Of a stretch of 64,000 nucleotides of DNA, positions 1,430 to 48,513 are shown in pieces. The stretch's first letter is position 1. Each line of letters opens with the position of its first letter. The stretch comes from Candidatus Woesebacteria bacterium (GTDB lineage Bacteria; Patescibacteriota; Microgenomatia; UBA8517), in contig CP065002.1 of NCBI GenBank assembly GCA_016700095.1, positions 867,141 through 931,140 on the forward strand, read 5' to 3'. A program made the translations under genes and the position numbers. The notes below the pieces were generated by a model, which worked only from the letters and a program-made list of their open reading frames with translations, did no database searches and had not been told where the DNA came from.

Positions 1430-2269
1430 TTATTTACCCATCTTTTTGAACAATACATACTCACAGATTCCCCAAAATACTCCAAGATCATAAACAATTT
1501 TAAATATCACGAAATTGATCGTCCTACTTTTAATAGACTTAACACAACCAACAACAAGGGAAACCGGCAACAAAGAGCGACTAAGTGCATATATTACTCC
1601 CAAAACGCCAAACTTATATTTTCTTTTACCAACCCATTTAGCTTGCGTAAATATTTCTGCCAGATTATCGGGATTTTCGTGGTAATATTTCGCTCCACTG
1701 ACAACCGACGCTTCGTAACCCAATTTGTCGCTAAGATAATCATCAGTATAATGCCCTCCGGGCAGAAATCCACCAACTCGGTCAAATTCCGACTTCAGGA
1801 GTGCTCTAAACACCTTTTGCTTGTCTGGATAATTTGTGGGGTGTCGTAGTTTTTGCGGCCAACCTTCATTAATATTCCAACACCGAGCCCATACATGTGA
1901 CCAATTGCTCACATATTCATTCTTACTAAAAGTTCCCTTTACTTTGTTTTGAACTATCGGTGTAACAAGATCGGTCAAGAATTTTTTATCAAACGTCATA
2001 TCCGCATCTAGAAAGACTAATATTTTCCCATTTGCTTTTTTTGCCCCCCAATTTCTTGCCATCCCCGGACCCTCATGGCGCTTTCTATAAATGTGTAGTT
2101 TGTAATTGTTAACCGTTACTTTATTGGCAATATCTACTGTTTTATCCTTCGATCCATCATCAACTACAATCACCTCAAAACGGTCAAAGTCTTGGTCGTC
2201 AAGCGAACGCAGGCATTTACTAATAACTTTTGCCTCATTAAAAGTCGGAATAACAATCGATACTTTCAT
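1430..2269 (-). CDS. GT2 (GT-A fold) glycosyltransferase
   Basis: N-terminal VSIVIPTFNEAKVI...VIVVDDGSKDKT...FLDADM (DXD) are hallmark GT2 motifs. 4-bp overlap with the upstream gene. Confidence 0.8.
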   Translation of the reverse strand: MKVSIVIPTFNEAKVISKCLRSLDDQDFDRFEVIVVDDGSKDKTVDIANKVTVNNYKLHIYRKRHEGPGMARNWGAKKANGKILVFLDADMTFDKKFLTDLVTPIVQNKVKGTFSKNEYVSNWSHVWARCWNINEGWPQKLRHPTNYPDKQKVFRALLKSEFDRVGGFLPGGHYTDDYLSDKLGYEASVVSGAKYYHENPDNLAEIFTQAKWVGKRKYKFGVLGVIYALSRSLLPVSLVVGCVKSIKSRTINFVIFKIVYDLGVFWGICEYVLFKKMGK

Positions 2270-3351
2270 ATGATTTTTATAAATAGTTTTTCGTATTCAC
2301 TAACTACAATGTCCCATGAATACCTCATCGCTTGGTTTCGAGACTTCTCTCCCCAATTTGTCTCCAGCGCTTTCGTTATTTCATGCGTAAAATCTTCTTT
2401 GTTTTCGGAATTAATAAATACTCCGGCATCACCTACAATTTCTCTGCGAATCGGATCATCAATAGTAACAATCGGGAGCCCACTTGCCATCGCTTCGACA
2501 AGTACAATACCAAACGCTTCCGACTCAAGGGGTACAAAAACAAATACATCTGCAGAACGATAAACCGACGGCATTGCCGAATGTTCAACCGAAACAAACT
2601 CAATTCGATCGCCAAGTTTTGCCCGACCCAACTTCGTCAGCTCATTTTTTAAATAGCCATTCCCCACTACAAGTAGTTGGTAATGATTGAGTCTGCTTAC
2701 ATTATCTATAACCAAATCAACGCGTTTGCATGGTACTAACGCATTTACAGTAAGTACAACAGGGTGCATCAAGGAGTGTTTATATTTTCTTCCTTGTGGT
2801 GAAAAACGCGCAAGATCAACACCGTTTGGAATATAAGTTGTTTTTACCAGAGGCATTGCCTTTTTTGCCCATACTTGGGCAAGTTTGGATATGGCAACAA
2901 AATAATCGGGAAAACTCCATAAGTTATTCCTATCGTCCCATCCAATTCCGGATTGCCCGGAGATAACCATTTTTGCACCGCTTAACCATGTCGCCAATCG
3001 CACCAGCGCGCATTGCCAGCCACCATTGAGCGGAAGAACAATATCATACTTATTCTTCATCAGTTTGGGGAATATTTTTAGAGTATGTATGGCAATTTTT
3101 CTACTCCAATAATCCATAAACCACCTACGTGCCAAAGTACCCGCCATATCTTTTTTATCCCAGTCTAATATTATTTCCGATTTGATAGTTTTGTAATTCA
3201 CTTTATTCTCTTTTGGTCCTGCTTGATACACAGTAACGTCATGCTTTTCACTCAATCTCTTTGCCAATTCATGTATAAACACTTCACCACCACGATTGAT
3301 TCCCCCAGAGAAAAAGCTTACAAATGCTATTTTTAATTTTTTCTTTTCCAT
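2266..3351 (-). CDS. GT4 (GT-B fold) glycosyltransferase
   Basis: C-terminal EAFGIVLVEAMASGLPIV motif (the E-x7-E region of GT4 retaining transferases). 361 aa. Confidence 0.8.
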   Translation of the reverse strand: MEKKKLKIAFVSFFSGGINRGGEVFIHELAKRLSEKHDVTVYQAGPKENKVNYKTIKSEIILDWDKKDMAGTLARRWFMDYWSRKIAIHTLKIFPKLMKNKYDIVLPLNGGWQCALVRLATWLSGAKMVISGQSGIGWDDRNNLWSFPDYFVAISKLAQVWAKKAMPLVKTTYIPNGVDLARFSPQGRKYKHSLMHPVVLTVNALVPCKRVDLVIDNVSRLNHYQLLVVGNGYLKNELTKLGRAKLGDRIEFVSVEHSAMPSVYRSADVFVFVPLESEAFGIVLVEAMASGLPIVTIDDPIRREIVGDAGVFINSENKEDFTHEITKALETNWGEKSRNQAMRYSWDIVVSEYEKLFIKII

Positions 3352-4724
3352 ATGCTTATATCTTCATCCATCATCCCACTTTCATTATAGTTTACCGTTA
3401 TCCATTTTGTTATTTCTTTTGGCTGATAAGTGCCCAAATCATACCAATTTCCACTTTTTGGTTGTGACCAAATGATAATTTCCGGAGGATTTAACTCCCA
3501 TGCGGCAATAGTGTTTTGTTGAACGTTGGGAATTTCCAAATACCAACCATAATTGTCTACCCACGGTTTTGGAGGTAAAGTTTTCGAGTACACATAAAGC
3601 GACGATGGTAATCCCATTAAGTAGACACTCTCTCCGTACGTAGACACATCACTAATACGATGCGCCAAATTAACGTCTTCGGTACCATAAAATCTAGTCT
3701 CTTTACCCCAATCGTTTGTTATTACTCGCGGGACAATTCCGATAACTAATAAGATACCGGAAATAAGCGCAATTCGTCTAACTTGCCTACTTCTATTTGA
3801 AAAATATGCGGTAAGAAGTATCAAAAAACACAAAGCCGCCTGGAAATGAAAAAACGAAAATCTTGGATAGACCGAAACGAAAGATCCACCGAGGAAAAAA
3901 AGTACAAGCATAATTGTTCGATCTTTGATAATTATATTTCTTGCCTTCACTACTCCAAATACCACAGGGAAAGACAGCAAGGTTAAAATTAGAATATCCT
4001 GGTTTCGCAGTTGCATTTGAACATAGCCGGGAAATTTACTCCAAAACGTGAACGGGTACCATACTACCCAATTTACAAAATATGCCAAGGATCCTTCGAT
4101 GGAAAGTTTAGTCAACAAAATGAAACCAAAGTAGAAAGGTGGAAAAAAAGACGACAGGATAGCTTTCTTGTTTCGCGAATAAACTACGATAAACAATAAG
4201 AATACAATTAAAAATAAACCGGCTGTTTGTTTAATTAAACACGCAATTGAGATAAAACTACTCGCAAGTGCGAAATCGGTCCACCGGGCACTTCCGGTAA
4301 GCGATCGTATTCCGAAATATGTTCCGGCAAGCAAAAATGGCACAAATGCCAAATCGAACCATAGCATATTACCGTCAAGGAAAGGTTGTAGTAAAACGTA
4401 ATAAAGAAGTGCCAACAACGAAATATGTTTATTACCGGTAAGCTTCGAGGCTATTAAATAGACATATAAATCGATAAATATAATAAATATCCAGGTTAAC
4501 AACTTTAAGGCAAAAACATTGTAACCCCATAATGAATACCACAAAGATAACATTCCCGTCAGCATTGGCGGGTATGGATGAATCATGTCCCCAAAAAGTG
4601 CAAATCCGTTATCAAATAAATATGGATATGCTAGCATTTCTGGCCATGCAGTAAATTTCAGACTACCAAGAAAAAACACATGAAGCGAAATTAGTAGTAG
4701 TAGGCCGACAATTGTTTTCTTCAC
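3333..4724 (-). CDS. Polytopic membrane protein, putative GT-C glycosyltransferase (PMT_2/DUF2029-like), with an extracytoplasmic C-terminal domain
   Basis: About 10 predicted TM helices followed by a roughly 130-aa hydrophilic W/Y-rich C-terminus. Sits in an operon with GT2/GT4 genes. No clear DE motif, so the family is uncertain. Confidence 0.45.
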   Translation of the reverse strand: MKKTIVGLLLLISLHVFFLGSLKFTAWPEMLAYPYLFDNGFALFGDMIHPYPPMLTGMLSLWYSLWGYNVFALKLLTWIFIIFIDLYVYLIASKLTGNKHISLLALLYYVLLQPFLDGNMLWFDLAFVPFLLAGTYFGIRSLTGSARWTDFALASSFISIACLIKQTAGLFLIVFLLFIVVYSRNKKAILSSFFPPFYFGFILLTKLSIEGSLAYFVNWVVWYPFTFWSKFPGYVQMQLRNQDILILTLLSFPVVFGVVKARNIIIKDRTIMLVLFFLGGSFVSVYPRFSFFHFQAALCFLILLTAYFSNRSRQVRRIALISGILLVIGIVPRVITNDWGKETRFYGTEDVNLAHRISDVSTYGESVYLMGLPSSLYVYSKTLPPKPWVDNYGWYLEIPNVQQNTIAAWELNPPEIIIWSQPKSGNWYDLGTYQPKEITKWITVNYNESGMMDEDISIWKRKN

Positions 4725-4733
4725 ACTTATATT

Positions 4734-5564
4734 CTACTTCTTAATACCGATAACAGCCAGGCTAGAACCACGTTTCGCGCAAGTTGTTATTAAATTGAAA
4801 GGCGCATAAACAATATTTTTGAAAAAGGCTTTTCTAAGGTTTACTAAATTAAATTTCATTAATGCACCTATACTTGCAACGTCAAAGATCCCCGACCATG
4901 AACCCCACCACACTATTTCAAATCCAGCTTTTCTGATAATCATTTTTAAGGTATTTGGTGTGAAGTGGTGAACGTGTTCATTGGGCATGAGATATCCCCA
5001 ATTATTACCCCGTATCTTTGCATCAAAACCACCGAAATTGGGAACATCGATATAAACCAAACCTTTTATTTTTAAAACCGCATAAATTTTTTTGACAACC
5101 GCGACAGGATCTTCAACATGCTCGAAGGTATGATTCATAATGACAACGTCGAAATAATTTAGGGGAAGTTTTGCTTTTTCGAAAGTCGAATTGGTTGTTT
5201 TAATTCCTTTTTTGTTCGCATATTTAAAAGACGCCGATGGTTCGACTCCCCACACCTGCCAACCATGATCTTTAAATATTGATAGCATTGTACCGGTTGA
5301 AGATCCGATATCTAAAATTTTTCCTTTCTTTTTGTATCTTGATATTGTTTGAAAGCGACGTATAAAAATATTTTTAAACAATTCTTCGTCACTTCGATAC
5401 TCTTTGTCATCGCGATGATAATTATCGTATTTTTCGAAATCGCGACAGTTAGTGCGCACTAAACCACATTCCAAACACTCTACAATGTCTTTTCCATTAA
5501 CTTCGAATAAATGTTTATACTTGTCCGATTTACAATATTTACATGTCATATTAATAACCAACAC
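4734..5564 (-). CDS. Class I SAM-dependent methyltransferase with an N-terminal CxxC...CxxC zinc ribbon
   Basis: CKYCKS...CLECG zinc ribbon, then motif I ILDIGSSTGTM and motif II VVIMNHTFEHV. Confidence 0.7.
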   Translation of the reverse strand: MLVINMTCKYCKSDKYKHLFEVNGKDIVECLECGLVRTNCRDFEKYDNYHRDDKEYRSDEELFKNIFIRRFQTISRYKKKGKILDIGSSTGTMLSIFKDHGWQVWGVEPSASFKYANKKGIKTTNSTFEKAKLPLNYFDVVIMNHTFEHVEDPVAVVKKIYAVLKIKGLVYIDVPNFGGFDAKIRGNNWGYLMPNEHVHHFTPNTLKMIIRKAGFEIVWWGSWSGIFDVASIGALMKFNLVNLRKAFFKNIVYAPFNLITTCAKRGSSLAVIGIKK

Positions 5565-6396
5565 CGGGAGTCAGGAGTTTTCTTTTAATTTTTTTAAGCG
5601 GTGTTTCAAATACAGCTCTTTTTTTGAATGAAGTTTTCATTATGCACCAAGGTGATCTAACAAAAGATGGTCGTTCTCTGAAAAAACTTTCCGGGTAATA
5701 GTAATTTTTTGCTACTTCAATTCCCATTTCATACTTTAGTTTTTTCTTACGTTTTGGTACCAACAAATCACCTTTGTCACCATGTGATCTTTGCAAAAAA
5801 GTCATATGCATATAGGGGGCGTGTATAAATTTGATTTTACGCGCAGATCTGTCCTGAATCATCTTCTTGTCCTTATCCGACCAACCCCATGTACCATGTG
5901 GATTTGTCGACGATAGACCGGGAATCATTCTGTTTATTCCCCTTAATCCCAAATGACCCTTTTTCCCCGCAATTTGATAATTGCCAGCGCTTTCATCCTG
6001 GTAATGAAAGATATCTCCTACCATATTTATACTGGGAACAAACACTGACTCGTACGTGAGTCCTCGTACTTGTCTTATGAAATCCGTAATGTCGCGTATT
6101 GATTTTTCCCACCATACTTCATCTGCATCCACAACCATAAACCAATCCGTATTTGTCGCACTTAACATGTCGGCTCGAACCTCTCTGAATTGTTCCGGAT
6201 TAACTTCGCCAACTAATTTTAGATCGATTTTATTAGGATAACGGTGTTTCAACTCTTTAGCAATTAACACACTATCATCCGTACTCCCCGTATCCCACAA
6301 CAACAACTTGTCAACGTAATCAATTACGCTTTGTACCGAATACCACAGAAAACGGTCTTCATTTTTAAATAAAGTATGTACTGATATGGTGTTCAC
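5551..6396 (-). CDS. GT-A-like glycosyltransferase (DXD-containing), family uncertain
   Basis: TLFKNEDRFL...LLWDTGSTDDS...FMVVDADEVWW matches the GT-A nucleotide-sugar binding layout. Confidence 0.5.
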   Translation of the reverse strand: MNTISVHTLFKNEDRFLWYSVQSVIDYVDKLLLWDTGSTDDSVLIAKELKHRYPNKIDLKLVGEVNPEQFREVRADMLSATNTDWFMVVDADEVWWEKSIRDITDFIRQVRGLTYESVFVPSINMVGDIFHYQDESAGNYQIAGKKGHLGLRGINRMIPGLSSTNPHGTWGWSDKDKKMIQDRSARKIKFIHAPYMHMTFLQRSHGDKGDLLVPKRKKKLKYEMGIEVAKNYYYPESFFRERPSFVRSPWCIMKTSFKKRAVFETPLKKIKRKLLTPGVGY

Positions 6397-7697
6397 TTTG
6401 ATTTATTAAACTCGTAAATTACACATACATAAGTTGCGATAAACAAAAATAAATTACTTAATCCTCCAACTATTACCGGAGCAAAAACACCTCGTGTCGG
6501 CGTTAGATATATGATGCCCAAAATTACAAACGGCAGCTGAATAAAGGTAAGCAAAGTAATGAGTTTAGGCTTCGAAAAAGCGTATATTAACAAATTAACA
6601 GACGGCACCGACAACATAAAAGGAATAGATCCGGCAATAAGCCATTTTAATAAACCACTTGCAACACTGTACTTGTCACCAAAAAACGCTATCACATACG
6701 GAGATACTACGATTCCCGCAAGCAGACCAAAACACATGAGTACAGTCAACCATACAGTCTTCATGAAATATTTTTTTAAGTCATTACTTTTCAAACTGGC
6801 ATATCTCGGAGCTAACACTCTCGCAAAACTTCCGGCAAGAAGCGGAATTCCAAACGACAATTGTCTTGCGGCAGAAAATATCCCTGTTTGGTAGGGCGTC
6901 AAAACTTGCAGTAATAAAATCGTATCAATTCGCCCATTTACGGCACCAGCGATACGTGACAACGCCATCCAAGAAGAAAAGTTAACAAACCCCTTCTCGA
7001 TATTTTTATAATTAATACGAAAAACTACCTGTGTTTTTTGCCAAAAGAAAGCAATAATAAAGGAAATAATATAGCTACCTGCATATACCATCATCGTATT
7101 TATTAACGTCAAGCCAAAGAATGACGACATCATTAAAGTTAGTGCAAGTCTGATTCCACCAATCAACATACTCAAAAGTGCTGATAATCCAAAATTTTTC
7201 TGCGATTGAAAAACTTGTATTTGAAAATCGACAATTAGAAAACCTGCAATCGCCAAGGCCGAAAACACGGTAAGCATCTTTTCTTCTGACTTTAAAACAA
7301 ATGATGAAATAACAGGCGACAACAAAGTAAGCACGACGATAAAAATACAAGCCGAAATAATACGTATTGCAAATACCGTATTTAGAGTTTCTTGTGCTTT
7401 GTCAAACTTTTTTTCTTTCAAATAGTTGGAGACATATCTAAACAAAGTTGATCCCAAACCCATATCACCTATCGCTATCATTATCGCAATGAAACTTAAT
7501 GCAGCGGAAATAATACCGAAAAGTTCAGGTCCCAGTTCTCGTCCGGCAAGTATCGTAAACATAATCGTAAATAATGATGCAATTATGCTCCCCATAAAAA
7601 GAACAGCTGTATCTTTAAAAGTATTTGAGAGAATGATGTTTCTAATTTTTGTTATCATGTTGAACTTTTTTTTCAGGACTAAACCAAAGCGCGACAA
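6393..7697 (-). CDS. Wzx-like oligosaccharide/polysaccharide flippase (MOP superfamily)
   Basis: 434 aa with about 12 TM helices. The N-terminal region with K/R-rich loops is typical of the polysaccharide biosynthesis protein (Wzx) family. Sits inside the glycosylation operon. Confidence 0.6.
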   Translation of the reverse strand: MSRFGLVLKKKFNMITKIRNIILSNTFKDTAVLFMGSIIASLFTIMFTILAGRELGPELFGIISAALSFIAIMIAIGDMGLGSTLFRYVSNYLKEKKFDKAQETLNTVFAIRIISACIFIVVLTLLSPVISSFVLKSEEKMLTVFSALAIAGFLIVDFQIQVFQSQKNFGLSALLSMLIGGIRLALTLMMSSFFGLTLINTMMVYAGSYIISFIIAFFWQKTQVVFRINYKNIEKGFVNFSSWMALSRIAGAVNGRIDTILLLQVLTPYQTGIFSAARQLSFGIPLLAGSFARVLAPRYASLKSNDLKKYFMKTVWLTVLMCFGLLAGIVVSPYVIAFFGDKYSVASGLLKWLIAGSIPFMLSVPSVNLLIYAFSKPKLITLLTFIQLPFVILGIIYLTPTRGVFAPVIVGGLSNLFLFIATYVCVIYEFNKSK

Positions 7698-10350
7698 TGG
7701 CTATAACAACAAGAGACAATGTCGTGTAATACAAACCCCATCTTACATACACTTGTGGTCCGAATTCCAGTTTATATGGAGAGTTTGATGGTTTTATATA
7801 AAAAGCATTTACCATGGAATACGCTGGGATGCTTAATGACGTACTTTGTAAATATGTAATTCTCCAACCGGGATGGAATGCGTCGGTAAATACAATCCAT
7901 CCGTTTTCTTTTTGTGGACTTAACTCATACACAGTCGGGTTTTTCTTTTCAAATTCTAGATTGCTAGATGCGGGTGGTTTATCATTTGTATCATCAGCAT
8001 ACACACGCACACCAAAGTGAGCCATGTAAGTCGAGGAATGGTTTTTTGCTTTATTCCATTCATCGGCGGTAATAAGTGCGACTGTATTAACAGAATTTAT
8101 TCCACCTAGATTTGTAATCGTAAGTTTATTGTCACCATCAAATAGTTTAATGCCTTGTGTGAACCATCTGAATTGCGTCTCACCACTATCTTTATTAAAA
8201 GCTTCACTTACAATCTCACCTTGTTCATTGCCTATTTCATATCTTAATTTCGAATCCATGCCCCCCAAACTTCGTATCGCAAGAATATAACTGGCATCCT
8301 GTACTTCGCCAAAATTAACGACAATTTTTTCACCAATTTTTTCTGAGAGAAATGATCCCAGACGATAATCAAAAGTTTTTGTTTTAATGCCTCGAATTAA
8401 TAACTGGTATTTAAAATCTAAATATTTATCATTATTAAAATACGCCCATTCACTCGCAAATTTTTTAGGGTCAACATAATCCTTTTGTAGAAAAGTCATT
8501 GTAAAATCATCCTCGTTGGTTCCATTAAAAATAATGGTTGCGCTTTCTGAAGCAATTTTATCCAGCAAAAGCGGATTCCACAGACCGTCTTCGAAATACG
8601 CGTTGATTTTGTTAGGCAAACCATCATCGCCAAACTCGGTTTCAATCTCAGGTCCGACTACAGCCAGTAGTTCATCCGCCTTAAATATTCTTGGTACACT
8701 ATTATCAATTTTATAAAAGGAAATATCGTTACTGTCGCGTTCTTTTTTCAACTCAGTATTATTGTTTAGTGCCATTTGCAATCTGTTCCAATCTTTTTGT
8801 TCTTCTCCATTTAACTTATATGGATTTCTGTGATCTTTGGATAATACAAGATACTTAATTCCCAACAATCGATACCAAGCTATATATTTATCGGTTTGAT
8901 AAATGTAATTATATTTATCTGAACTTCCAACAGTCAGATTAGCCAGAGGTCGAAGATTAGGCATATCACTTGCATTTAAAGCTGGGTTGTTCTCGGTTTC
9001 AAAGGTCGAAGGATGTTTGTCCGGGAACCAGAGTGAGCGATAATATTCATGATCCTCACTTAATATGGTGTTTATTTCACTTAGTTCATCGGGGTAATTT
9101 CTTATCGACAAAACAAAATTCATATTCCCGAGCATCGCCGGCGCTACCAGGAAGAGTAGATAAATATACGCAAATAAAGTAATACTTTTACCAAGAAGCG
9201 TATGTTTTGACAACTTGTCGCAAATTGTAGTTAGAAAACTACCCATTGAAATTCCCGCAAGTAACATTACCGGAACAAAAAATTTACTGTTATCTCGAAA
9301 CGACTCACCAAACGGTAAATTCGTTACTGCAAACGAGTATATATTTCCCATTGGCGGAGTTGCCCCCTTAAGTAAGAAAATCAAAAATAGCAAGATAAGA
9401 ATGATTTTAAGTTCACGCTTATCTTTACTGCTAAACAAATTTCCAAAAACCGTAACAGGAATTAGTAAAAAATACCATGCAGGGTACGTGATTTCGCCAA
9501 AGATATTTTTATACCAATGAGGCTGATAGAAAAATATGCCGTTCACAAACGAAATAAAATTCAAATTGGTGACAAAGGAAGCTGAATTTTCAGGATGAAT
9601 TTTTACTAAAGGAATTATCCAATACGAATTAATACATATCCAAGGCAACACAATTAACAATAGATTTTTTATTATCAAACGCCATTTACCGGGTGCTTCG
9701 ATAAAACCCACAAGTAATGCAACAAAAAGAGCAATCAATGCGATCCGTGGATCGGCAATCGTATTTAGAGTGAGAACAAAAAGAGCAAGGAAATATTTTT
9801 TCGGGGATAATTTGGAAATAACGTTGGTTAGTGTCAGTATCGTGAATGGAAATATTCCATAAGAAAGTGCAACACCAACCTGACCACCATCAATTAGTAG
9901 TATGAAATATGTATTTAGTGTGTAAAACAACGAAGCAAAAAACCATACCAACGGTGGATACTTTAATTTTTTTGCAAGATAAATAGGCCCAATAAGTGAA
10001 AGGATGATTGCTGGGAAGAAAAATAATAAGTTAATGATTATATTGTTGGGCAAACCGAGGTATTTACCCATAATTCCATAGAGCATTAGGATTGGTTTAA
10101 TAAAAAGCCTCGGATCGATTGTTCCTAAATTACCATCTCTGTTTATCCAGGAATACGGTTCACTGAAAAGATCGGTAAACTCACGATTCGTAAAGTTGGG
10201 TGCATCACCCCACGACAAATCGGTGTGAATAATGAGGGGATAGAAAACGATAATAACAGGAATAAGTAAACCAATAATAAAAAACGCTACATCGGCGACC
10301 TTATAAGTCCCTGGTATATTAATGCGAATCTTGTCAGTTTTCTTTTGCAT
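7642..10350 (-). CDS. Giant polytopic membrane protein (902 aa), putative GT-C glycosyltransferase (AftD/YfhO-like architecture) with a large extracytoplasmic C-terminal domain
   Basis: About 14 TM helices in the first 420 aa, then a roughly 480-aa soluble region. The N-terminal loop carries a WGDAPNF...D-rich motif. Confidence 0.45.
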   Translation of the reverse strand: MQKKTDKIRINIPGTYKVADVAFFIIGLLIPVIIVFYPLIIHTDLSWGDAPNFTNREFTDLFSEPYSWINRDGNLGTIDPRLFIKPILMLYGIMGKYLGLPNNIIINLLFFFPAIILSLIGPIYLAKKLKYPPLVWFFASLFYTLNTYFILLIDGGQVGVALSYGIFPFTILTLTNVISKLSPKKYFLALFVLTLNTIADPRIALIALFVALLVGFIEAPGKWRLIIKNLLLIVLPWICINSYWIIPLVKIHPENSASFVTNLNFISFVNGIFFYQPHWYKNIFGEITYPAWYFLLIPVTVFGNLFSSKDKRELKIILILLFLIFLLKGATPPMGNIYSFAVTNLPFGESFRDNSKFFVPVMLLAGISMGSFLTTICDKLSKHTLLGKSITLFAYIYLLFLVAPAMLGNMNFVLSIRNYPDELSEINTILSEDHEYYRSLWFPDKHPSTFETENNPALNASDMPNLRPLANLTVGSSDKYNYIYQTDKYIAWYRLLGIKYLVLSKDHRNPYKLNGEEQKDWNRLQMALNNNTELKKERDSNDISFYKIDNSVPRIFKADELLAVVGPEIETEFGDDGLPNKINAYFEDGLWNPLLLDKIASESATIIFNGTNEDDFTMTFLQKDYVDPKKFASEWAYFNNDKYLDFKYQLLIRGIKTKTFDYRLGSFLSEKIGEKIVVNFGEVQDASYILAIRSLGGMDSKLRYEIGNEQGEIVSEAFNKDSGETQFRWFTQGIKLFDGDNKLTITNLGGINSVNTVALITADEWNKAKNHSSTYMAHFGVRVYADDTNDKPPASSNLEFEKKNPTVYELSPQKENGWIVFTDAFHPGWRITYLQSTSLSIPAYSMVNAFYIKPSNSPYKLEFGPQVYVRWGLYYTTLSLVVIAIVALWFSPEKKVQHDNKN

Positions 10351-10496
10351 GTAATGTTAATTTATAAATTGTTAATCCAAGCAAACCAAGGTAGAGGTAT
10401 TTTGATAATTGAATTGCCCGACCGGGGTGATGTGTGGCAAGAAAAAAACAAACTATAAATAGAATTACCGATGTTATACTTACTAATACACGTTTC
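10351..10496. promoter_or_regulatory. Divergent intergenic region between the 902-aa GT-C gene (minus) and the YfhO/GT39 pair (plus). Presumed bidirectional promoter.
   Basis: This is the only strand switch to plus for multi-gene transcription in the first 30 kb. AT-rich with TATAAT-like hexamers. No experimental support. Confidence 0.3.
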
Positions 10497-12458
10497 ATGA
10501 TCAAATTACCAAAGGTATCAACACGCAGTTTAATGCCGTACTTTTTCATAATTCTATCGACTATAGTATTATACCTCCCGGTTTTAATAAATAGTGATCT
10601 TTTTTTGAATAGAGGTAACGACTTAACCGAATTCTTCTGGCCGATTTATTTATATGTCAAAAACCAGATTTTAGCGACACATAAATTGCCATATTGGAAT
10701 GGCATGTTCTTGTCAGGTGTGCCACTTTTACCTGACCCCCAATCGCCTATCTTTTATCTTCCCAATATCATTTTTATGGTCTTGCCCATCGGAGTTGCTT
10801 TTATCATTTCATCGATAATACATACTGCATTTGGGGGAATCGGAACATATTTGGTATGCTACAAGGGACTAAAATTTAAGCTACTACCTTCATTGTTTGG
10901 ATCCTTTGCATATCTACATCTGGCTCGGTATAGCGGCTTCATAGAAGCCGGTCATTTCGGCTTAATAGCGGCCACAACATACATTCCTTACGTTTTTTTA
11001 TCACTAATTATGATCTCAAGAAATCCCTCCCTCACATGGTCGGTAATTTTTGCTTCAAGTTTAGCGGGTATATTTTTCACTCACCCGACAACATTTGTAT
11101 ACGCAGCACTTTTTTCATTTCCGGTATTTTTCACTCTTACTAATTTAACTAGGCGAGCACATAAAACTTGGCTTTTTTATATTATCGGCGGACTTATTTC
11201 ATTTGGATTTACGGCAATAACACTGTTACCTCAATTAAACTGGGTTCCTCAAACTAATAGATTTTTATTATCGGTTGATAAAGATGTATACCCCAAGTGG
11301 AATTCTATTGGCGAATATGCTCAAAGCATTTTCGCTCCGTGGCTTAATGGCATATCAGGGATTAGATCGATCGACTCGGAAAAATGGCTTTTTATTGGTA
11401 TATTGCCAAGTATATTGGCGGTATATGGTTTTACGCAAATTAAAACCGCAAAGAAGAAAGTATGTATAATGCTACTTCTATTTACCTTTGCCCTATTTTC
11501 TCTAAATAACTTGTCACCATTTTACACTGCGCTTCTTAATCAAAATTGGTATGTTTTCGGCCGTGTCTCAACGCGAGTATGGTTTATGGTTTCTTTTCCG
11601 ATTATTTTGCTGGCAACATATGCAATTAATGTTTTAAGCACTAAACACACCAGATTAGCTTACATTCTTGCAATGCTAGCAGTTGTTGAGATTACAACAA
11701 TTTCACTAAGCCACATTACCAAACCGATACGTAACGATAGACTTATAGCAAGTAAAAACGTCTTGTCTTTTCTTGCAAACGACAAAGATAGATTTAGAGT
11801 ATTTTGTACCACCAGATGTTTCTCTCAAAAGGATGTAGCCGAATACGGCTTAGAAACAATCGAAGGATACTCGACCCTGCACCAAAAAAATTATTACCAG
11901 AGTGCATGGGGAATGACCGGAGCTTATTGGAATTATTACACACTCACGCTTCCGCCAATCGGGTCATACAAATATGGGAAATTAGATCCAAATTATGAGA
12001 GTCTGGGCAATTTCAATACAAAATATATCGTATCGCCTTATGAAATAGTCCATTCCGATATCGTGTTTCTTACTGCTATTGATGGTTTTAATATTTATTC
12101 TAATAATAAATACAAACCACGTGGTTATTTTGTTGAAAACGACAAAACGCAGACAGCCGATATTAAATACTACTCTCCCAACAAAATCGTTATTAACGTC
12201 AACACCACATCAAAACATCTAATTCTCGCCGAAGTGTTTAGCCCCGGATGGATTGCTTTGGCCGACACGAAAAAAGTGCAAGTGCAAGAAACCCCCAATG
12301 CACAAAGAGCAATAGATTTACCATTAGATACTAAAATGGTTGAATTATATTATCAACCCGTCGGATATAATTTGGGAAAAACTATTACTGTTGCGACTTT
12401 GATTGGTTTATCGTTCTATGTATTAAGTGTTAACTTGAAGAAAATCAAACTACCTTAA
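10497..12458 (+). CDS. YfhO-family membrane glycosyltransferase (GT-C-like)
   Basis: FFWPIYLYVKNQILATHKLPYWNGMFLSGVPLLPDPQSPIFYLPNI closely resembles the conserved YfhO N-terminal signature (hexose-P-C55-dependent glycosylation of teichoic acids). The ORF track start at 10434 is a GTG codon. ATG codons at 10497 and 10536 are more plausible starts. Confidence 0.6.
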   Translation: MIKLPKVSTRSLMPYFFIILSTIVLYLPVLINSDLFLNRGNDLTEFFWPIYLYVKNQILATHKLPYWNGMFLSGVPLLPDPQSPIFYLPNIIFMVLPIGVAFIISSIIHTAFGGIGTYLVCYKGLKFKLLPSLFGSFAYLHLARYSGFIEAGHFGLIAATTYIPYVFLSLIMISRNPSLTWSVIFASSLAGIFFTHPTTFVYAALFSFPVFFTLTNLTRRAHKTWLFYIIGGLISFGFTAITLLPQLNWVPQTNRFLLSVDKDVYPKWNSIGEYAQSIFAPWLNGISGIRSIDSEKWLFIGILPSILAVYGFTQIKTAKKKVCIMLLLFTFALFSLNNLSPFYTALLNQNWYVFGRVSTRVWFMVSFPIILLATYAINVLSTKHTRLAYILAMLAVVEITTISLSHITKPIRNDRLIASKNVLSFLANDKDRFRVFCTTRCFSQKDVAEYGLETIEGYSTLHQKNYYQSAWGMTGAYWNYYTLTLPPIGSYKYGKLDPNYESLGNFNTKYIVSPYEIVHSDIVFLTAIDGFNIYSNNKYKPRGYFVENDKTQTADIKYYSPNKIVINVNTTSKHLILAEVFSPGWIALADTKKVQVQETPNAQRAIDLPLDTKMVELYYQPVGYNLGKTITVATLIGLSFYVLSVNLKKIKLP

Positions 12459-12489: not shown

Positions 12490-13980
12490 ATGAAATTAGT
12501 AATTTACAAAAACTACAAGATTATTTTAATATTAGTACTTTCTAGTTTACTACGTTTTTCCAACTTGCCTGCAAAAATTACTTTTACCGCAGATGAAGCA
12601 TATCTGTCCTACGTCGCCCAAACACTGATTAAAAACTTCCACATCATATGGATTGGTTGGAGTGCATTAGGGTTTGACGTTTACTTAGGGCCCTTATGGA
12701 TATATGTCATTTATCCATTTCTATATTTATCGCACGGAAATCCCATTATTCTGGGTTATATTTCCGGTTTTCTTGGAGTACTAACAACTTTTGCAATTTA
12801 TAAAATCGGCTCTAAATTTTTTAATCACCAAGTAGCCATCTTGTCATCACTAAGTTACGCACTATTGCCCTTATTAATTTATTATGATCAAAAACCTTAT
12901 CCACCCGCCATACCACTTATTAGTCTTCTTGTGACATTTGCTTTACTGAAAGTAAGAAAAAGCGCCAAGTGGTGGGTCGTAATTTCATTTCTTTATGGAC
13001 TGGTTTTTAATATTCACCTTTCATTGGTTTTACTTGCTTTTCCTATCCTTTACGCATTATTTACTGGAAAAAAATATCTTAACAAAAAAATATTAGTCAG
13101 TTCATTTCTGGTATTTATTGTTACCGTTTCACCGCTTATTGTTTTTGATTATTATAAGAAAGGGTACAACATACAAGCTCCCCTAAGAGCGTTTAATGCT
13201 AGTCAAAACTCTACCGAAAAAACCTCCGGTCATTACGACGAATTGTTTTCTTCCTTTGGACGAATTTGGTATTTGAATTCATTTAGTGAAGTCGCCGACG
13301 AAATAATACCAACATGCAAAGAAAATGCGCTATCGACTTACTCACGACCTCCGCTTGGCATATCTATCGTTTCGTTGGCAATTTTTATATCCTTTGCTCT
13401 TAATAAAAAAACATGGAAGGATTATTCGCGTAAAATGTTACTTTTTGTCAGTTTAACATTTATCATTCCTTTTACGTTAGTTACCGTTATTAATCCTGTT
13501 GAATATTATCTGCTGGGGTTTTTCCCGATTTTACTCATTATTACATCAGTAGTTATTTACGACCAAAGAAAAATAGTCAAGATGTTTTTATTGCTACTTA
13601 TGTTTTCGTGTTTGATCTATGCACCATTCGTAACCCTAAGAGCAAATACAAATTACGGTCTTGAGGCAAAAAAAGAACTGGCTCAACAAGTTGCCCAATT
13701 AGTCGACGGCAAACCTTATTACCTGCAAGCCCGTGGCGGTTGTCAAAGCGTGGGTGGATGGCGATATCTTTTTTCCATCTATGGGCAACGACCCGCAAAA
13801 AGCTATGACGACGTAAGTTTTGGCTGGCTTTATCCTGATGAAATAACAAGTGAAAAAAGCGTTTACGAAGTATTAGTTGTTGAGAAACGGGCAAGTGATC
13901 ACACTAATTTATATACTAATTACGTTAACAAGGTAACATCCGGGGGTTATGAGGCTTTGATTTATAAAATTAGTGATTAG
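12490..13980 (+). CDS. GT-C glycosyltransferase, ArnT/PMT (GT39/PMT_2)-like
   Basis: N-terminal TM helix then FTADEAYLSYVAQ (DE motif), with more than 10 TM helices after it. 496 aa. Confidence 0.65.
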   Translation: MKLVIYKNYKIILILVLSSLLRFSNLPAKITFTADEAYLSYVAQTLIKNFHIIWIGWSALGFDVYLGPLWIYVIYPFLYLSHGNPIILGYISGFLGVLTTFAIYKIGSKFFNHQVAILSSLSYALLPLLIYYDQKPYPPAIPLISLLVTFALLKVRKSAKWWVVISFLYGLVFNIHLSLVLLAFPILYALFTGKKYLNKKILVSSFLVFIVTVSPLIVFDYYKKGYNIQAPLRAFNASQNSTEKTSGHYDELFSSFGRIWYLNSFSEVADEIIPTCKENALSTYSRPPLGISIVSLAIFISFALNKKTWKDYSRKMLLFVSLTFIIPFTLVTVINPVEYYLLGFFPILLIITSVVIYDQRKIVKMFLLLLMFSCLIYAPFVTLRANTNYGLEAKKELAQQVAQLVDGKPYYLQARGGCQSVGGWRYLFSIYGQRPAKSYDDVSFGWLYPDEITSEKSVYEVLVVEKRASDHTNLYTNYVNKVTSGGYEALIYKISD

Positions 13981-14705
13981 GTGTGTAACTTTTTTGATAT
14001 ATACCTAGTCCAAAATACCAGAATATATGTTTGAATAAATATCGCCCATTTAACGGTTTGCAAATAGTTGCCGACTATCGCCGATTCACCGACTCTTTGT
14101 AAATATGTTACAGGTACTTCAACGAATGAAAGTTTGTTGGAAACGGTAAGTAAGGTTAATTGAGTATTAAAAAGAGGCGACTTCTCAAATCCCCACTTCC
14201 TTTTAAGAATATTTAGAGCTTTTCTAGAAAACAATTTATAAGTACAGCCCACATCCGTTAAAGCGTTGGTATTAAAAAGCACTTCAATAGTTTTTGCTTC
14301 AATTACATTGGCAAATTTACGAAACACGCCCATACCGGCACCGGAGAGTGACGAAATTAAACTCGTACGTGAACCAAGTACTACTTCAAAATCATTTGAG
14401 TAAACCAGTAGTCGCTCCAGGTCTTTTGCCAAAAAGCTTCCATCCGGTTCACACGCCACTATAAGATCACCTCTTGCCGTGTTTAATCCCTTCTGAAAGG
14501 CATATCCATATCCCTGGCGATCTTCGTATACTATTTTTACACCGGTTTTATTTACTTCTTGGTCTGTACCTTTTTGGGCATTATTGTTTACTACTATGAT
14601 TTCATCAACAAATTGTGTTTTTTGAAAACTTTCGATTACTCTGCGAATCGTTTTTTTCTCGCGGTATGTGGCTAAAACTAAAGAGACTGTTTTTCCTTTA
14701 TACAT
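13977..14705 (-). CDS. GT2, DPM1/GtrB-like polyprenol-phosphate sugar synthase (soluble form)
   Basis: VSLVLATYREKKTI...EIIVVNNN...ACEPDGSF; 242 aa. The Gtr-like arrangement with the adjacent small membrane protein and GT-C is described in the findings. Confidence 0.65.
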   Translation of the reverse strand: MYKGKTVSLVLATYREKKTIRRVIESFQKTQFVDEIIVVNNNAQKGTDQEVNKTGVKIVYEDRQGYGYAFQKGLNTARGDLIVACEPDGSFLAKDLERLLVYSNDFEVVLGSRTSLISSLSGAGMGVFRKFANVIEAKTIEVLFNTNALTDVGCTYKLFSRKALNILKRKWGFEKSPLFNTQLTLLTVSNKLSFVEVPVTYLQRVGESAIVGNYLQTVKWAIFIQTYILVFWTRYISKKLHT

Positions 14706-14707
14706 AT

Positions 14708-15139
14708 TTATTTACATTTATAAAATTCATAAACCGATATTGTGAGCCCCAAGATAAAAGCCTGAAACATATAAATCATTGTTCGCTCGGCCCACACGCC
14801 AACCCCTAGAGCGAGCAATAATTCCGCAAAGGCTAAAAAAAACAACGATATCACAAAAATAACTTTGCTAGTTGCCCCAAGCATTATTACGGCAAGAATC
14901 AAACTAATCATGACAATAATATTTATCGTTAGTGGCAAAAAGGGGTGAAAATATCCGGCAGAATGAAGCAAGACAAGAAGTATTAGAATAATATTATAGG
15001 TAAATAGACCGGAAAGATGTTTATTTGCCCATGCTTTTGTTTTGACCTCTTTATGTCCCCAAAAGGTTCTTGACAGTCGTTTATTTATGTACTTTTTTAG
15101 ATCTTTTAACATAATTATAAAGAGGAAATATGAGCACAC
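14708..15139 (-). CDS. Small 3-4 TM membrane protein, possibly a GtrA/GtcA-like lipid-sugar flippase. Function unproven.
   Basis: 143 aa with hydrophobic helices. Sits between a GtrB-like GT2 and a giant GT-C. No recognisable GtrA signature, and the true start is uncertain. Overlaps the 3' end of the upstream gene. Confidence 0.3.
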   Translation of the reverse strand: MCSYFLFIIMLKDLKKYINKRLSRTFWGHKEVKTKAWANKHLSGLFTYNIILILLVLLHSAGYFHPFLPLTINIIVMISLILAVIMLGATSKVIFVISLFFLAFAELLLALGVGVWAERTMIYMFQAFILGLTISVYEFYKCK

Positions 15140-18038
15140 ATATCACAACCGTCGCCAAACTTACAAATAGTCCAAAGTAATAATATTTCTGTGTGGTATA
15201 GAATATTGTAAATTCCTGTGTAGTGCTATTCCCGGGCATATACCAAGCGTTTGCGTATCCATGGGCACTAAAGTGTAGTGGTTTTCCCAAATATGAGGCG
15301 CTAACGATATTCCAGTTCGGACTATATTTTTCCAAAAACACTAGCAAGTAATTATCATTGATATTTTCCACCTTCACCTTGTACTTCGTTGGGTTAACTT
15401 TTGTAAAAGATACCGTTGGAGTATGTATCGTGTCAGCATTTTGTTCTATTAAAAAAAGCTTATTATCATAGATACGCTTAAAGGAGATATTTTCAAAATA
15501 TGTTTTACTTCTCTTCTCCCGACTATCAACTGGGATTTCTATCACCACATTCATCGTTGAACTTGCTCTGACTGGTTCAACAAAAATTTCTTTTTTATTC
15601 CAATCGGTATCTTCATCGACTTTAGTGGGTAAAACCTTATACTTCGCAGCTCCGCTTTCTTGGACTATATTAACATTCGGTGTATTACCATAGATATATT
15701 TGTATTCATATGAGAACAGATAATTGGCGTATGGATTGAATTCATCTACCGGGACAATTAGACTCTTCTCATTAATACCATCATTAAACACGATCAACAC
15801 ATTGTCGTTATTCAATAATTCTTCTCCTTTGATATGGAGATTTTCATTTCCCTTTAATACCAGATCTTTGCTGATCAGGTTACTGTTCTCAGGATAAACA
15901 ATATCCACATTATGTTCACCCTGCGTGACCTTAATATTTTTGAGTATGTAAAATGTATCGGTTTCAACAATTTCTGTATCTTTATTTAACAGATCCGGGA
16001 AAATTACGCTTAGATCACTTCCGTTGTAACCTCTTTTTTCGATCGCTAATTCATAAATTCCCTCAGGAACATTTATTAAATACCTTTGACGATTTCCAAC
16101 CGGATTACTGCCATAGGTCGTATTGTCTAACTGGAATATGTTTTTCTTGATATCTTGCGAATTATCTATCTTATTTACTTCACTGTCACCAGCGAGAGTA
16201 ATTACGCGATTTGGATCAAGATATGGCAGTAACGTATCAAATACAGAATCATCAGAATTATTTGTATATAGTCCGTTTGCAGTAAGAATTTTACCAGGAT
16301 AGTCAGCATTTTGGTAAAAAGTCCATTCACCGAAAACCAGTTTATCTTTTTCCGGTATTTCTTTTGAATGATATATGGATACGGCGTCATTTTTCATGAA
16401 TAAAGTATCAGCATTCAAAAACGATAGAGACTTAAATACCGAGTCGTAATTCTCCTGTTTGATATTATTATAGATTCCTTGCAATATAGGCTTTAGTCCC
16501 TTACCCAGAAAAACAAAGGATGGTGCCACGGTTTCTTTGGACGAAAATAGATTAAGAACGGTTTCTGTACCCCTATATCCCCATTTAAACTGTTCCAGTT
16601 CATCCTCGGGATAAACAACGATACGAGCACTACTCTCACTATTATCAAGATATTTTTTTGTTTCCCATACATAGTCGGGGATTTTAACAAAAAAACTATC
16701 TGATTTTTGTGGACGAAATATTTTACCTGTTATAAGTGGATACTCATAAAGTAAGCCTCCAATTACAAAAATTACTACTCCCAAATATATCAAGCGCTTG
16801 CCAAGTATTATATTGAGAATTTTCTTGTCACCAAACCTTTTTAATATATTTTCAACAAGTAATCCGGAAAGCACGGCATATGCCAATATCACGTAAGGCG
16901 TAAATATATACCATGGACTTCTGAAAAACGAAAAGTACGGTATATATTTAGCCATCAAATTATATAAACTACCTGTTGGTTCATGTAATCCGGCTCCCAT
17001 AAAGATACCGATTACCAACATAATTCCTGTATATACATACAAATAGTTTTTCTTATTGTTTAGTAAGATGTAGGAAATAATTACAAGCGTTGGAACAACA
17101 AAACTAAACAGAATAAAGGGGAGTTTATAAAAATAGTTTAATGCGTATGGAATATACATCGGAAAACCCGATTGATCAACGGCATACCAATCCCAAGCTC
17201 CTTGTAATCTAATAACATTCAGAAGGCTGGTGTTTTCAGATAATGCCGCAACCCAGTTTGTATATCCAATATTCTCCAGAGTTAATACTGCTCGATCCGC
17301 TAGCATAAAGTGCGAAAACGGTACAACCCAATATAAATTTGACATAATGATAACTACACTCATTAACATTGCACCTAAGAAGATATGTCTGATTTCTCGT
17401 TTTCTAAAAGGTAATATTGTTAGAAAGTAAATTATCACTCCACCCATTAATGTAATAATATATGCAGGATTTATCCCGGCACCTGAAGTAATCATGGAAA
17501 ACAAAACACTATAAAAGAGTAACTTCCCATTCGATAGGGCATCAAATACATATCGATTGGCTAACCCAATAAATAGCGGTAAACCTACCATAACTGCGAG
17601 GTTAGCAACTTTAACGTTTTCCCATGTGTTGAACAAATAAATATTATATGTATAAATAAATACAAGTATTAGCTGAGCAAGTTTATTGTTTTTAAGAAAG
17701 GTTCGCGAAAGATAATAAGAACCAAAAACAATTGAAGAAAACCAAAATACAAGTGAGATTATTTGCACATGCCGTAAATTAAATCCCAAAACATGAGGTA
17801 TAACTTGAATCAAATGAAAAAACCAACCGGAAGTTGACGTTGTCGCATCCGCGCCGGTTCCAATTGTGTCATTCCAAACAAAAAAGCGTCTTTCAAACCA
17901 GACCAGAGGATCAAGTGGAAAGTTGGTATCTAGTCCATTAATGATGACATCGGGTCTACCAACAAACCACAGCAATGGAGTTAGTGACATGGCAAACATT
18001 ATAATTGTAAGCCAATGCTCTTTAATTATTTGTTTCAT
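15081..18038 (-). CDS. Giant GT-C-like membrane glycosyltransferase (985 aa), AftD/DUF3367-like
   Basis: The N-terminal loop GRPDVIINGLDTNFPLDPLVWFERRFFVWNDTIGTG resembles the DTKLDL...W.P..G.G signature of alpha-(1->3)-arabinofuranosyltransferase-like proteins. About 14 TM helices and a roughly 550-aa extracytoplasmic C-terminus. Confidence 0.5.
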   Translation of the reverse strand: MKQIIKEHWLTIIMFAMSLTPLLWFVGRPDVIINGLDTNFPLDPLVWFERRFFVWNDTIGTGADATTSTSGWFFHLIQVIPHVLGFNLRHVQIISLVFWFSSIVFGSYYLSRTFLKNNKLAQLILVFIYTYNIYLFNTWENVKVANLAVMVGLPLFIGLANRYVFDALSNGKLLFYSVLFSMITSGAGINPAYIITLMGGVIIYFLTILPFRKREIRHIFLGAMLMSVVIIMSNLYWVVPFSHFMLADRAVLTLENIGYTNWVAALSENTSLLNVIRLQGAWDWYAVDQSGFPMYIPYALNYFYKLPFILFSFVVPTLVIISYILLNNKKNYLYVYTGIMLVIGIFMGAGLHEPTGSLYNLMAKYIPYFSFFRSPWYIFTPYVILAYAVLSGLLVENILKRFGDKKILNIILGKRLIYLGVVIFVIGGLLYEYPLITGKIFRPQKSDSFFVKIPDYVWETKKYLDNSESSARIVVYPEDELEQFKWGYRGTETVLNLFSSKETVAPSFVFLGKGLKPILQGIYNNIKQENYDSVFKSLSFLNADTLFMKNDAVSIYHSKEIPEKDKLVFGEWTFYQNADYPGKILTANGLYTNNSDDSVFDTLLPYLDPNRVITLAGDSEVNKIDNSQDIKKNIFQLDNTTYGSNPVGNRQRYLINVPEGIYELAIEKRGYNGSDLSVIFPDLLNKDTEIVETDTFYILKNIKVTQGEHNVDIVYPENSNLISKDLVLKGNENLHIKGEELLNNDNVLIVFNDGINEKSLIVPVDEFNPYANYLFSYEYKYIYGNTPNVNIVQESGAAKYKVLPTKVDEDTDWNKKEIFVEPVRASSTMNVVIEIPVDSREKRSKTYFENISFKRIYDNKLFLIEQNADTIHTPTVSFTKVNPTKYKVKVENINDNYLLVFLEKYSPNWNIVSASYLGKPLHFSAHGYANAWYMPGNSTTQEFTIFYTTQKYYYFGLFVSLATVVICVLIFPLYNYVKRSKKVHK

Positions 18039-43700: not shown

Positions 43701-44312
43701 TTATATTTTTTCGGATAAATCTGAAGCTTTGTTTGCCAAGTCAACAAGAAGTTTTTCGTCGTTTGTCATAGATAAGAAAATCGCTAGCTTTGATATATTT
43801 TCAAGTCTGGTGTTTATGCCATGCACTTTCTGACCATAGTTTCCACCTTTTTTGCTTATGTCGTTAACCTTTTCTTCCGCTTTGTCCAACTCTTCAATTG
43901 CATCTTTGAGCGTATCTGAGGCAGCATCTTTTTTACCTTCGTTTAGTAATTTTTCAGTTTCCAGAGTCCGTTTGACTGCAATAAATACATGATAATCTAC
44001 TTTCTGCGAACTTCCAAAGATAAGTGCACCTCTTGTTTTTTCTTTAATCCTTTTTAAGAAATACATTTTTTCCGTACGTGTCTTTCCCGCAACAAGTGGC
44101 CAAAACAATTCGTACGAATTTATCTCACTATCTTCTTTTTCTCCCATTTCCCAAAGCATATTTCCCTCTGCTTCATCGGTTGCGGTTTTGTCCTCTGACA
44201 GTTTCATTTTTGCACTCGGAGACACTTCGTTAGTCTTTTCCGCCAATATCATACTTGACGAGCCAGAAATAATAAGTGCTGCTAAAAACATACTAAGTAG
44301 GATTTTCTTCAT
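43701..44312 (-). CDS. Secreted or lipoprotein-like protein with a signal peptide and a K/E-rich coiled-coil C-terminus. Hypothetical.
   Basis: MKKILLSMFLAALIISGSSSMILA looks like a signal peptide. The remainder is hydrophilic and charged. Flanked by unusually long AT-rich intergenic regions. Confidence 0.45.
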   Translation of the reverse strand: MKKILLSMFLAALIISGSSSMILAEKTNEVSPSAKMKLSEDKTATDEAEGNMLWEMGEKEDSEINSYELFWPLVAGKTRTEKMYFLKRIKEKTRGALIFGSSQKVDYHVFIAVKRTLETEKLLNEGKKDAASDTLKDAIEELDKAEEKVNDISKKGGNYGQKVHGINTRLENISKLAIFLSMTNDEKLLVDLANKASDLSEKI

Positions 44313-48465: not shown

Positions 48466-48513
48466 ACAATCTTGTACGATTATACTGCAGAAAAATGAAG
48501 CGATACAGCGCAA

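Follow-up and report, generated by a model that had tools for sequence, protein, structure and literature searches.

A probable AftD-like extracytoplasmic glycosyltransferase at the head of a conserved Wzx gene cassette in Candidatus Woesebacteria

The DNA analysed here is a 64,000-nt stretch of a Candidatus Woesebacteria genome (contig CP065002.1, positions 867,141 to 931,140; the whole stretch is called the window below), and its minus strand carries an ATG-started open reading frame (ORF) of 902 codons (Table 1). An earlier note, made from the letters of the window alone, had pointed to this ORF as a giant polytopic membrane protein paired divergently with a YfhO-family gene. The ORF call was confirmed by an identical deposited protein, QQS38601.1, located on a 1.27-Mb Candidatus Woesebacteria contig, and by more than 120 full-length homologues with 33-47% identity. 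An exhaustive profile search with the family returned 4861 cluster representatives at E≤1e-3 and 1309 at E≤1e-30. Because of the identical deposited protein, the homologues and these counts, the ORF is a real gene and belongs to a large family. Named homologues came from Woesebacteria, Blackburnbacteria, Microgenomates or the 'Patescibacteria group'. The deposited product name of QQS38601.1 is 'oligosaccharide repeat unit polymerase', and other records name homologues 'hypothetical protein' or '6-pyruvoyl-tetrahydropterin synthase-related protein'. The polymerase name was not reproducible with NCBIfam release 20.0 or with Pfam for the 902-aa protein and 40 homologues. The G+C content is 32-39% across the window, which is AT-rich throughout.

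An AlphaFold2 (AF2) model of the protein, built from a 41-sequence alignment, had a predicted local distance difference test score (pLDDT) of 87.2 and a predicted template modelling score (pTM) of 0.87. The modelled helices together with the loop charges gave 12 transmembrane (TM) helices, 11 N-terminal and one C-terminal anchor at residues 866-889; the earlier note had counted about 14 and missed the anchor. The N-terminus is cytoplasmic, with inside loops rich in lysine and arginine and outside loops poor in both. The large extracytoplasmic domain that had been proposed was present, at about 460 residues (407-865) instead of 480, and it consists of three parts: an alpha/beta domain, a beta-sandwich like those of carbohydrate-binding module (CBM) families CBM6, CBM35 and CBM36, which is presumed to be a glycan-binding module, and a second beta-sandwich preceded by a long helix. 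The protein stops 13 residues past TM12.

In a Foldseek comparison of the model with the PDB, the top ranks went to the three AftD entries (E values between 7.6e-13 and 4.9e-11, query TM-score 0.5); STT3, PglB and ArnT came next. Neither a transporter nor a protease, the two alternatives named by the earlier note, was among the leading matches. Fold comparison values were 18.0 for STT3B, 17.2 for ALG12, 17.0 for Pmt4, 16.9 for AglB, 16.0 for AftA, 14.6 for Pmt2, 13.9 for PglB and 13.8 for ArnT. The multi-helix membrane domain was superposable on solved GT-C enzymes, and the protein has the long first outside loop with a conserved acidic residue that is characteristic of this superfamily (residues 42-101, D49). 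A relationship was also detected with a 985-aa protein encoded elsewhere in the window (15081-18038), which passes the PF11847 (GT-C_AftD) cut-off with 31 bits against 26. Alignment of the family profile to this paralogue with hhalign gave a probability of 98.2% and E 4e-14 over residues 98-382, and BLASTP between the 902-aa and 985-aa proteins gave E 6e-5. PF10131 (PTPS_related, CL0111), a GT-C clan member of unknown function (PMC7801869), matched 12 of the 41 family members at E≤0.01, and four of five inspected homologues passed its cut-off of 26.4 bits with scores of 28.9-34.9 over the membrane domain; these matches cover TM2-TM11 and only the first half of the profile (about positions 15-330 of 621), and the 902-aa protein of the window was itself unmatched. 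A GT-C fold is very likely for the 902-aa protein, with AftD as its top fold match and a PF11847 protein as its paralogue, which supports the GT-C-type reading put forward earlier.

The protein follows the plan of AftD, the arabinofuranosyltransferase D of the mycobacterial cell wall (PDB 6W98/6WBX; PF11847/DUF3367). The AF2 model and loop charges, set against the published description of AftD, showed 11 TM helices, an outside domain with a CBM-like module and a twelfth helix placed as in AftD. The differences are considerable. Identity is about 10-13%, and the length is 902 residues against about 1400. AftD has three CBMs and a sandwich, whereas the 902-aa protein has one CBM-like module and one sandwich, and the TM13-16 bundle that forms a separate membrane domain in AftD is missing. 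The AftD structure contains a bound acyl carrier protein. AftD acts in the context of the decaprenyl-phospho-arabinose pathway, whereas the 902-aa gene stands in a Wzx cassette in a bacterium of the candidate phyla radiation (CPR); no genes of the arabinose pathway were noticed among the general Pfam results for the window.

Conservation was counted in an alignment of 41 family sequences. The first outside loop contains the motif W47-G48-D49-A50-P51-N52-F53, in which D49 (codon 10204-10206) is present in 41/41 sequences, A50 and P51 in 40/41 each and G48 in 39/41. The earlier note had drawn attention to this motif and to a D-rich loop after TM1; the motif lies where it was placed, but of the five aspartates only D49 is conserved. 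The other invariant residues of the membrane domain are D154 (in IDGGQVG), R202, D353 and K356, the last two found in 41/41 sequences each, and R352 (40/41) and D200 (39/41) are nearly so. The positive-inside rule assigns every loop that carries one of the invariant charged residues to the outside. In GT-C enzymes the outer face of the membrane is where donor phosphate and acceptor are bound. In the CBM-like module E674, R693 and W729 are invariant and N747 and N755 are each present in 40/41 sequences, a set that would suit a sugar-binding site.

The residues described as essential in AftD are K39, D41, E251, K361 and D474. D49 and K356, the latter within an R-x3-K motif, are plausible positional counterparts of D41 and K361. 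By its likeness to D41, D49 is a candidate catalytic or donor-binding aspartate, and the R352-D353-K356 cluster is a candidate phosphate-binding site. R352-x3-K356 may be the counterpart of AftD R-N-V-H-K361, which occupies the same topological place; we regard this as a lead and not as a test. One further similarity was rejected as a chance local match: phmmer against PDB sequences gave 4-alpha-glucanotransferases (amylomaltase, GH77; E 8e-4 to 5e-3, residues 545-638), the catalytic positions of which align to residues that are unconserved in the 902-aa family, and the family profile found no GH77 protein.

The 902-aa gene is followed on the same strand by genes encoding, in order, a Wzx flippase, a GT2, a methyltransferase, a PMT_2-like GT-C, a GT4 and a second GT2 (Table 1). 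Its 3' end overlaps the start region of the Wzx gene, for which the in-frame starts are TTG 7697 or ATG 7658. A scan of positions 7400-10700 found no terminator-like site, either between these two genes or elsewhere in the interval, and 14 promoter-like sites against 14.2 in shuffled sequences, which is no excess. Orthologues of the cassette genes, with 37-59% identity, were found in the same order in five of five inspected loci. A pattern scan of species-representative genomes then gave 46 related loci; Wzx lay directly downstream of the 902-aa homologue in 29 of 38 related loci, and all six downstream genes were collinear in 27 of 32 genome loci. A distant subfamily (about 440 bits) retains the GT-C, Wzx, GT2 and methyltransferase genes; immediately before them stand a small ORF and an AftD-like gene of PF11847. 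Since the methyltransferase keeps its place directly after the Wzx-GT2 pair even in this subfamily, it suggests that the transferred sugar is methylated. This enzyme carries an N-terminal CxxC...CxxC zinc-ribbon-like segment before its domain binding S-adenosylmethionine (SAM).

Table 1. Features of the 902-aa gene, its protein domains and its nearest neighbours (positions in the window)
Feature	Position	Strand	Basis
Probable AftD-like GT-C-fold membrane glycosyltransferase, whole gene, 902 aa	7642..10350	-	ORF; QQS38601.1; AF2; top fold match AftD
GT-C membrane domain, aa 18-406, 11 TM helices	9133..10299	-	AF2 helices, hydropathy, loop K/R, hhalign, PF10131
First extracytoplasmic loop, aa 42-101, WGDAP motif	10048..10227	-	conservation; outside position after TM1
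R352-D353-N-S-K356, outer end of TM10, conserved basic/acidic cluster	9283..9297	-	conservation
Extracytoplasmic alpha/beta domain, aa 407-655	8386..9132	-	
CBM6/CBM35/CBM36-like beta-sandwich, aa 656-762, boundaries approximate	8065..8385	-	
Second beta-sandwich, aa 791-865	7756..7980	-	AF2 strands 795-863, pLDDT >90; conserved W818, W829, N848
TM12 anchor, aa 866-889, then short basic cytoplasmic tail	7684..7755	-	AF2 helix; hydropathy peak 872-890
Wzx/MOP-type flippase	6393..7697	-	Pfam Polysacc_synt 73 bits; NCBIfam MOP flippase
GT2, 281 aa	5551-6396	-	Pfam
SAM methyltransferase	4734-5564	-	Pfam
PMT_2-like GT-C	3333-4724	-	Pfam
GT4	2266-3351	-	Pfam
GT2, 279 aa, two C-terminal TM helices	1430-2269	-	Pfam, TM helices
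YfhO-family GT-C-type membrane protein, longest ORF 674 aa	10434..12458	+	precomputed PF09586, BLASTP

The same neighbourhood logic of a GT2, a flippase and a GT-C is found in the multi-component systems GtrABC, CsbB/GtcA/YfhO, GacIJKL, WpsA/B/G/J and GT136 ORF12 with its MATE protein. GacIJKL and WpsA/B/G/J are precedents with a Wzx/MATE-type flippase (PMC10821137), and GacK, WpsG and ORF14 are flippases of this type, as in the cassette. The lactococcal systems resemble the cassette further in having cytoplasmic elongating glycosyltransferases. In pentofuranose systems, the Citrobacter GT136 ORF12 shares the count of 11 TM helices and carries an acceptor-binding CBM at its C-terminus (PMC11127046), and CBM-type modules bind the acceptor glycan in AftD also. 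Unlike these systems, the cassette contains two further GT-C genes and a methyltransferase, and its lipid-sugar synthase is not confidently assigned. The YfhO protein of CsbB/GtcA/YfhO has no detectable sequence relationship to the 902-aa protein, and PF09586 (YfhO) matched neither this protein nor any of 41 homologues.

Because a GT2, a Wzx/MATE flippase and a GT-C protein with a CBM together make up a known logic of extracytoplasmic glycosylation, we read the 902-aa protein as a transferase that acts outside the membrane. On balance we favour the view that it is an extracytoplasmic GT-C-fold glycosyltransferase, in effect a shortened AftD, which adds a lipid-carried sugar or glycan to a surface glycan. 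The 11 N-terminal helices would form a lipid-facing catalytic domain with its active site at the outer membrane face, built from D49 in the WGDAP loop, D154, D200/R202 and R352-D353/K356, and the outside domain would be held above this site and re-anchored by the twelfth helix. The cytoplasmic GT2 and GT4 enzymes of the cassette would charge a polyprenyl-phosphate carrier, the adjacent methyltransferase would probably methylate the lipid-carried glycan, and the co-translated Wzx-type flippase would flip the charged carrier. The 902-aa enzyme would then take a sugar or short oligosaccharide from the carrier and transfer it to a surface glycan, itself perhaps held in place by the CBM-like module. 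A polyprenyl-phosphate-linked donor is indirectly supported by the overlapping Wzx gene and the co-conserved cytoplasmic glycosyltransferases.

Several results weigh against this reading. A Pfam scan of the 902-aa protein, which took in PF11847, found no match even at E≤10, and phmmer, the family profile and hhalign gave no significant direct sequence match of the protein to AftD. The family profile found no AftD in the PDB; the 985-aa paralogue found none either, the PF11847 protein of another locus (L055) reached 6W98 only at E 0.001, and hhalign of the family against a recovered AftD fragment gave a non-significant E of 0.013 over 50 residues. A residue-by-residue mapping onto AftD is not possible because direct alignments are too weak, so that a match to the essential residues is not established: the position of AftD E251 is unconserved in the family, and AftD D474 appears to align to a column that is D in 30 of 41 sequences and N459 in the 902-aa protein. 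MmpA, a distant relative, has been assigned a role in transport or as a scaffold, not an enzymatic one. The closest matches of the 281-aa GT2 are GmaR and SunS, which are GT2s that modify proteins, and the 279-aa GT2 had generic matches only, though it has two C-terminal TM helices; comparison of both with the PDB and NCBIfam was unspecific, and neither is clearly a polyprenyl-phosphate sugar synthase. Finally, Pfam found no phosphoglycosyltransferase of the Bac_transf or MraY/WecA type in the window.

The alternative that survives best, although we consider it unlikely, is that the protein stands in for Wzy and polymerises the lipid-linked repeat units once Wzx has flipped them. Such a role as the pathway's polymerase would account for the GenBank name, and it would agree with the position of the gene, which is first in the operon and overlaps, and is co-conserved with, Wzx. 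Pfam found no Wzy/WaaL-type protein in the window, and there was no Wzy_C, O-antigen polymerase or EpsG protein among the scanned ORFs. For lactococci, polymerisation of Wzx-flipped units by a protein of GT-C fold has been proposed (PMC10821137), and a CBM would fit the holding of a growing chain. However, no Pfam or NCBIfam polymerase model, including Wzy_C, O-antigen polymerase and EpsG, matched the 902-aa protein or any of the 41 family members, and its fold is not that of Wzy or WaaL and does not support the idea. A chain-length regulator was not seen. Among relatives of solved structure that extend polymers, the closest (AftD and AftA) add one sugar at a time, and Wzx/MATE-type flippases also serve monosaccharide donors, so that the link to Wzx does not require oligosaccharide units.

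It is a good deal less probable that the protein is an oligosaccharyltransferase that moves a flipped glycan en bloc to a protein acceptor, for instance pilin or an S-layer protein, in the manner of STT3, PglB and AglB. These enzymes are GT-C proteins and appear among the fold matches, but their WWD(Y/W)G motif is nowhere in the 902-aa protein, in which even WW[DE] is absent from all 902 residues, and their outside domain is unlike that of the 902-aa protein. AftD was the best match over the soluble part, the CBM-type sandwich suggests a glycan and not a peptide as partner, and no conserved gene for an acceptor protein adjoined the cassette in the five inspected loci.

MmpA (NCgl2761/Rv0226c) bears on a third alternative. 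It is a protein of about 470-540 residues that lacks a CBM and is confined to Corynebacterineae; it has been reported to be homologous to the N-terminal 668 residues of AftD, to be required for corynebacterial trehalose-lipid transport, and to have no recognised catalytic motif (PMC8698533). Both it and the 902-aa protein are like the N-terminal part of AftD, and the NCBIfam model of MmpA (NF053599) was the sole NCBIfam match of the family, found weakly but consistently in 37 of 41 members (best E 5e-14). This match also counts as sequence support for the link of the family to AftD. A non-enzymatic scaffold or lipid-glycan export helper of this kind, as the relationship of MmpA to the AftD membrane domain might suggest, is nevertheless the least probable of the three, since the 902-aa protein scored only 31 bits against a cut-off of 210 and matched only over residues 294-458 (TM8-TM11 and the start of the outside domain), the acidic and basic positions that never vary in the family are grouped at the outer face, where GT-C active sites sit, and it has a CBM-like module, as does the catalytic AftD.

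The glycosyltransferase reading can be extended to the pathway as a whole, in a form that we offer very tentatively. The family may be the key outside enzyme, either a polymerase or a final ligase, of a Microgenomates-wide pathway that lacks Wzy and a detectable phosphoglycosyltransferase. In such a pathway polyprenyl monophosphate would carry a methylated oligosaccharide as it is assembled; once flipped by Wzx, the oligosaccharide would be processed by GT-C enzymes alone (the 902-aa, YfhO-like and PMT_2-like proteins), giving a lineage-defining envelope polymer.

CPR cells are tiny and mostly attached to hosts, and they meet their partners through an envelope of which, to our knowledge, almost nothing is known; our literature search for GT-C enzymes or envelope glycans of Patescibacteria or Microgenomates found nothing. 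Woesebacteria, Blackburnbacteria, Daviesbacteria and other Microgenomates share the gene order of the cluster headed by the 902-aa gene, and because this order is kept across these groups the cluster probably makes a core surface glycan of Microgenomates. The compact AftD-like placement points to residues that may be catalytic and to a module that may bind glycan, and it comes with a defined set of partner genes. It also adds a minimal form of the AftD plan and a large family without a curated model, numbering at least 1300 cluster representatives. The family is an uncurated, family-level variant of a familiar kind of enzyme; it overturns no current view, and its interest is mainly as an entry to the envelope glycans of Microgenomates.

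The YfhO-family gene proposed as divergent partner was confirmed, at a distance of 83 nt from the 902-aa gene by its longest ORF. The exact partner protein (P0241) has a precomputed PF09586 YfhO match, as do about 20 of 120 homologues. Our own Pfam scan gave a C-terminal YfhO match of 24.1 bits, below the cut-off of 28.5, and BLASTP gave E 2e-12 to a 787-aa PF09586 protein. A YfhO-like partner lay divergently within 1.5 kb of the 902-aa homologue in 20 of 37 loci. The GenBank start of the gene is TTG 10605 (617 aa), which would delete TM1, and the longest ORF starts at GTG 10434. In the long ORF a hydrophobic helix at residues 34-52 is followed by an Asp-containing loop, as expected for TM1 and the first extracytoplasmic loop (EL1) of a GT-C protein. 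Because homologues span 91-97% of the long ORF, most of them supporting the longer N-terminus, the deposited start is probably too far downstream. The YfhO-like protein was rejected as a paralogue of the 902-aa protein (hhalign probability 2%).

Genes for glycan biosynthesis form an island that takes up most of the window. At least 12 of them are of GT-C type: PMT_2/PMT-like genes at 3333, 12490, 18022, 28919, 36689, 55184, 57907, 59556 and 61322, together with those for the 985-aa AftD-like protein, the 902-aa protein and the YfhO-like partner. Giant GT-C proteins had been called rare, which neither this number nor the size of the family bears out; apart from this and the helix count, the observation in the earlier note was largely right. 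The window also holds two Wzx flippase genes (6393-7697 and 47200-48513), many GT2 and GT4 genes, several methyltransferases and enzymes that modify sugar nucleotides. Scans for tRNA and Rfam families found nothing in the window.

The plus-strand pair of YfhO-like and PMT_2-like genes (end 13980) converges with the minus-strand operon of the AftD-like protein (end 13977), and the stop regions at 13977-13980 overlap by 4 nt, leaving no room for a terminator. This operon (13977-18038) encodes the 985-aa protein, then a 143-aa ORF without a family match and then a 242-aa GT2, for which the best NCBIfam matches were AglJ and dolichyl-phosphate hexose transferase. It looks like a three-component extracytoplasmic glycosylation unit of lipid-sugar synthase, small membrane protein and GT-C. 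In many other genomes, too, a homologue of the 985-aa protein is encoded upstream of the 902-aa homologue.

Further along the minus strand (23351-27987), two adjacent genes encode polytopic membrane proteins of 889 and 656 aa, which are paralogues of each other (BLASTP E 1e-15 to 9e-20) and match no GT-C family. The 889-aa protein has an F5/8 type C (discoidin, galactose-binding-like) domain at residues 641-756; it was rejected as a paralogue of the 902-aa protein (hhalign probability 0.5%). An 828-aa F5/8-domain protein is encoded near the 902-aa homologue of locus L006. A DUF5667 protein of 203 aa is encoded inside the island (43701-44312, minus strand), and in the Blackburnbacteria locus L001 a weak DUF5667 protein (9229-9789) lies directly upstream of the 902-aa homologue. 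Many of the metagenome-assembled genome (MAG) records that carry the cluster (L008, L009, L011, L012, L014 and others; binchicken/co-assembly) are titled 'uncultured Gammaproteobacteria bacterium', and one is titled 'Candidatus Woesearchaeota archaeon'. These titles look like placeholder or wrong labels, because gene content and similarity place the records with Woesebacteria and Microgenomates.

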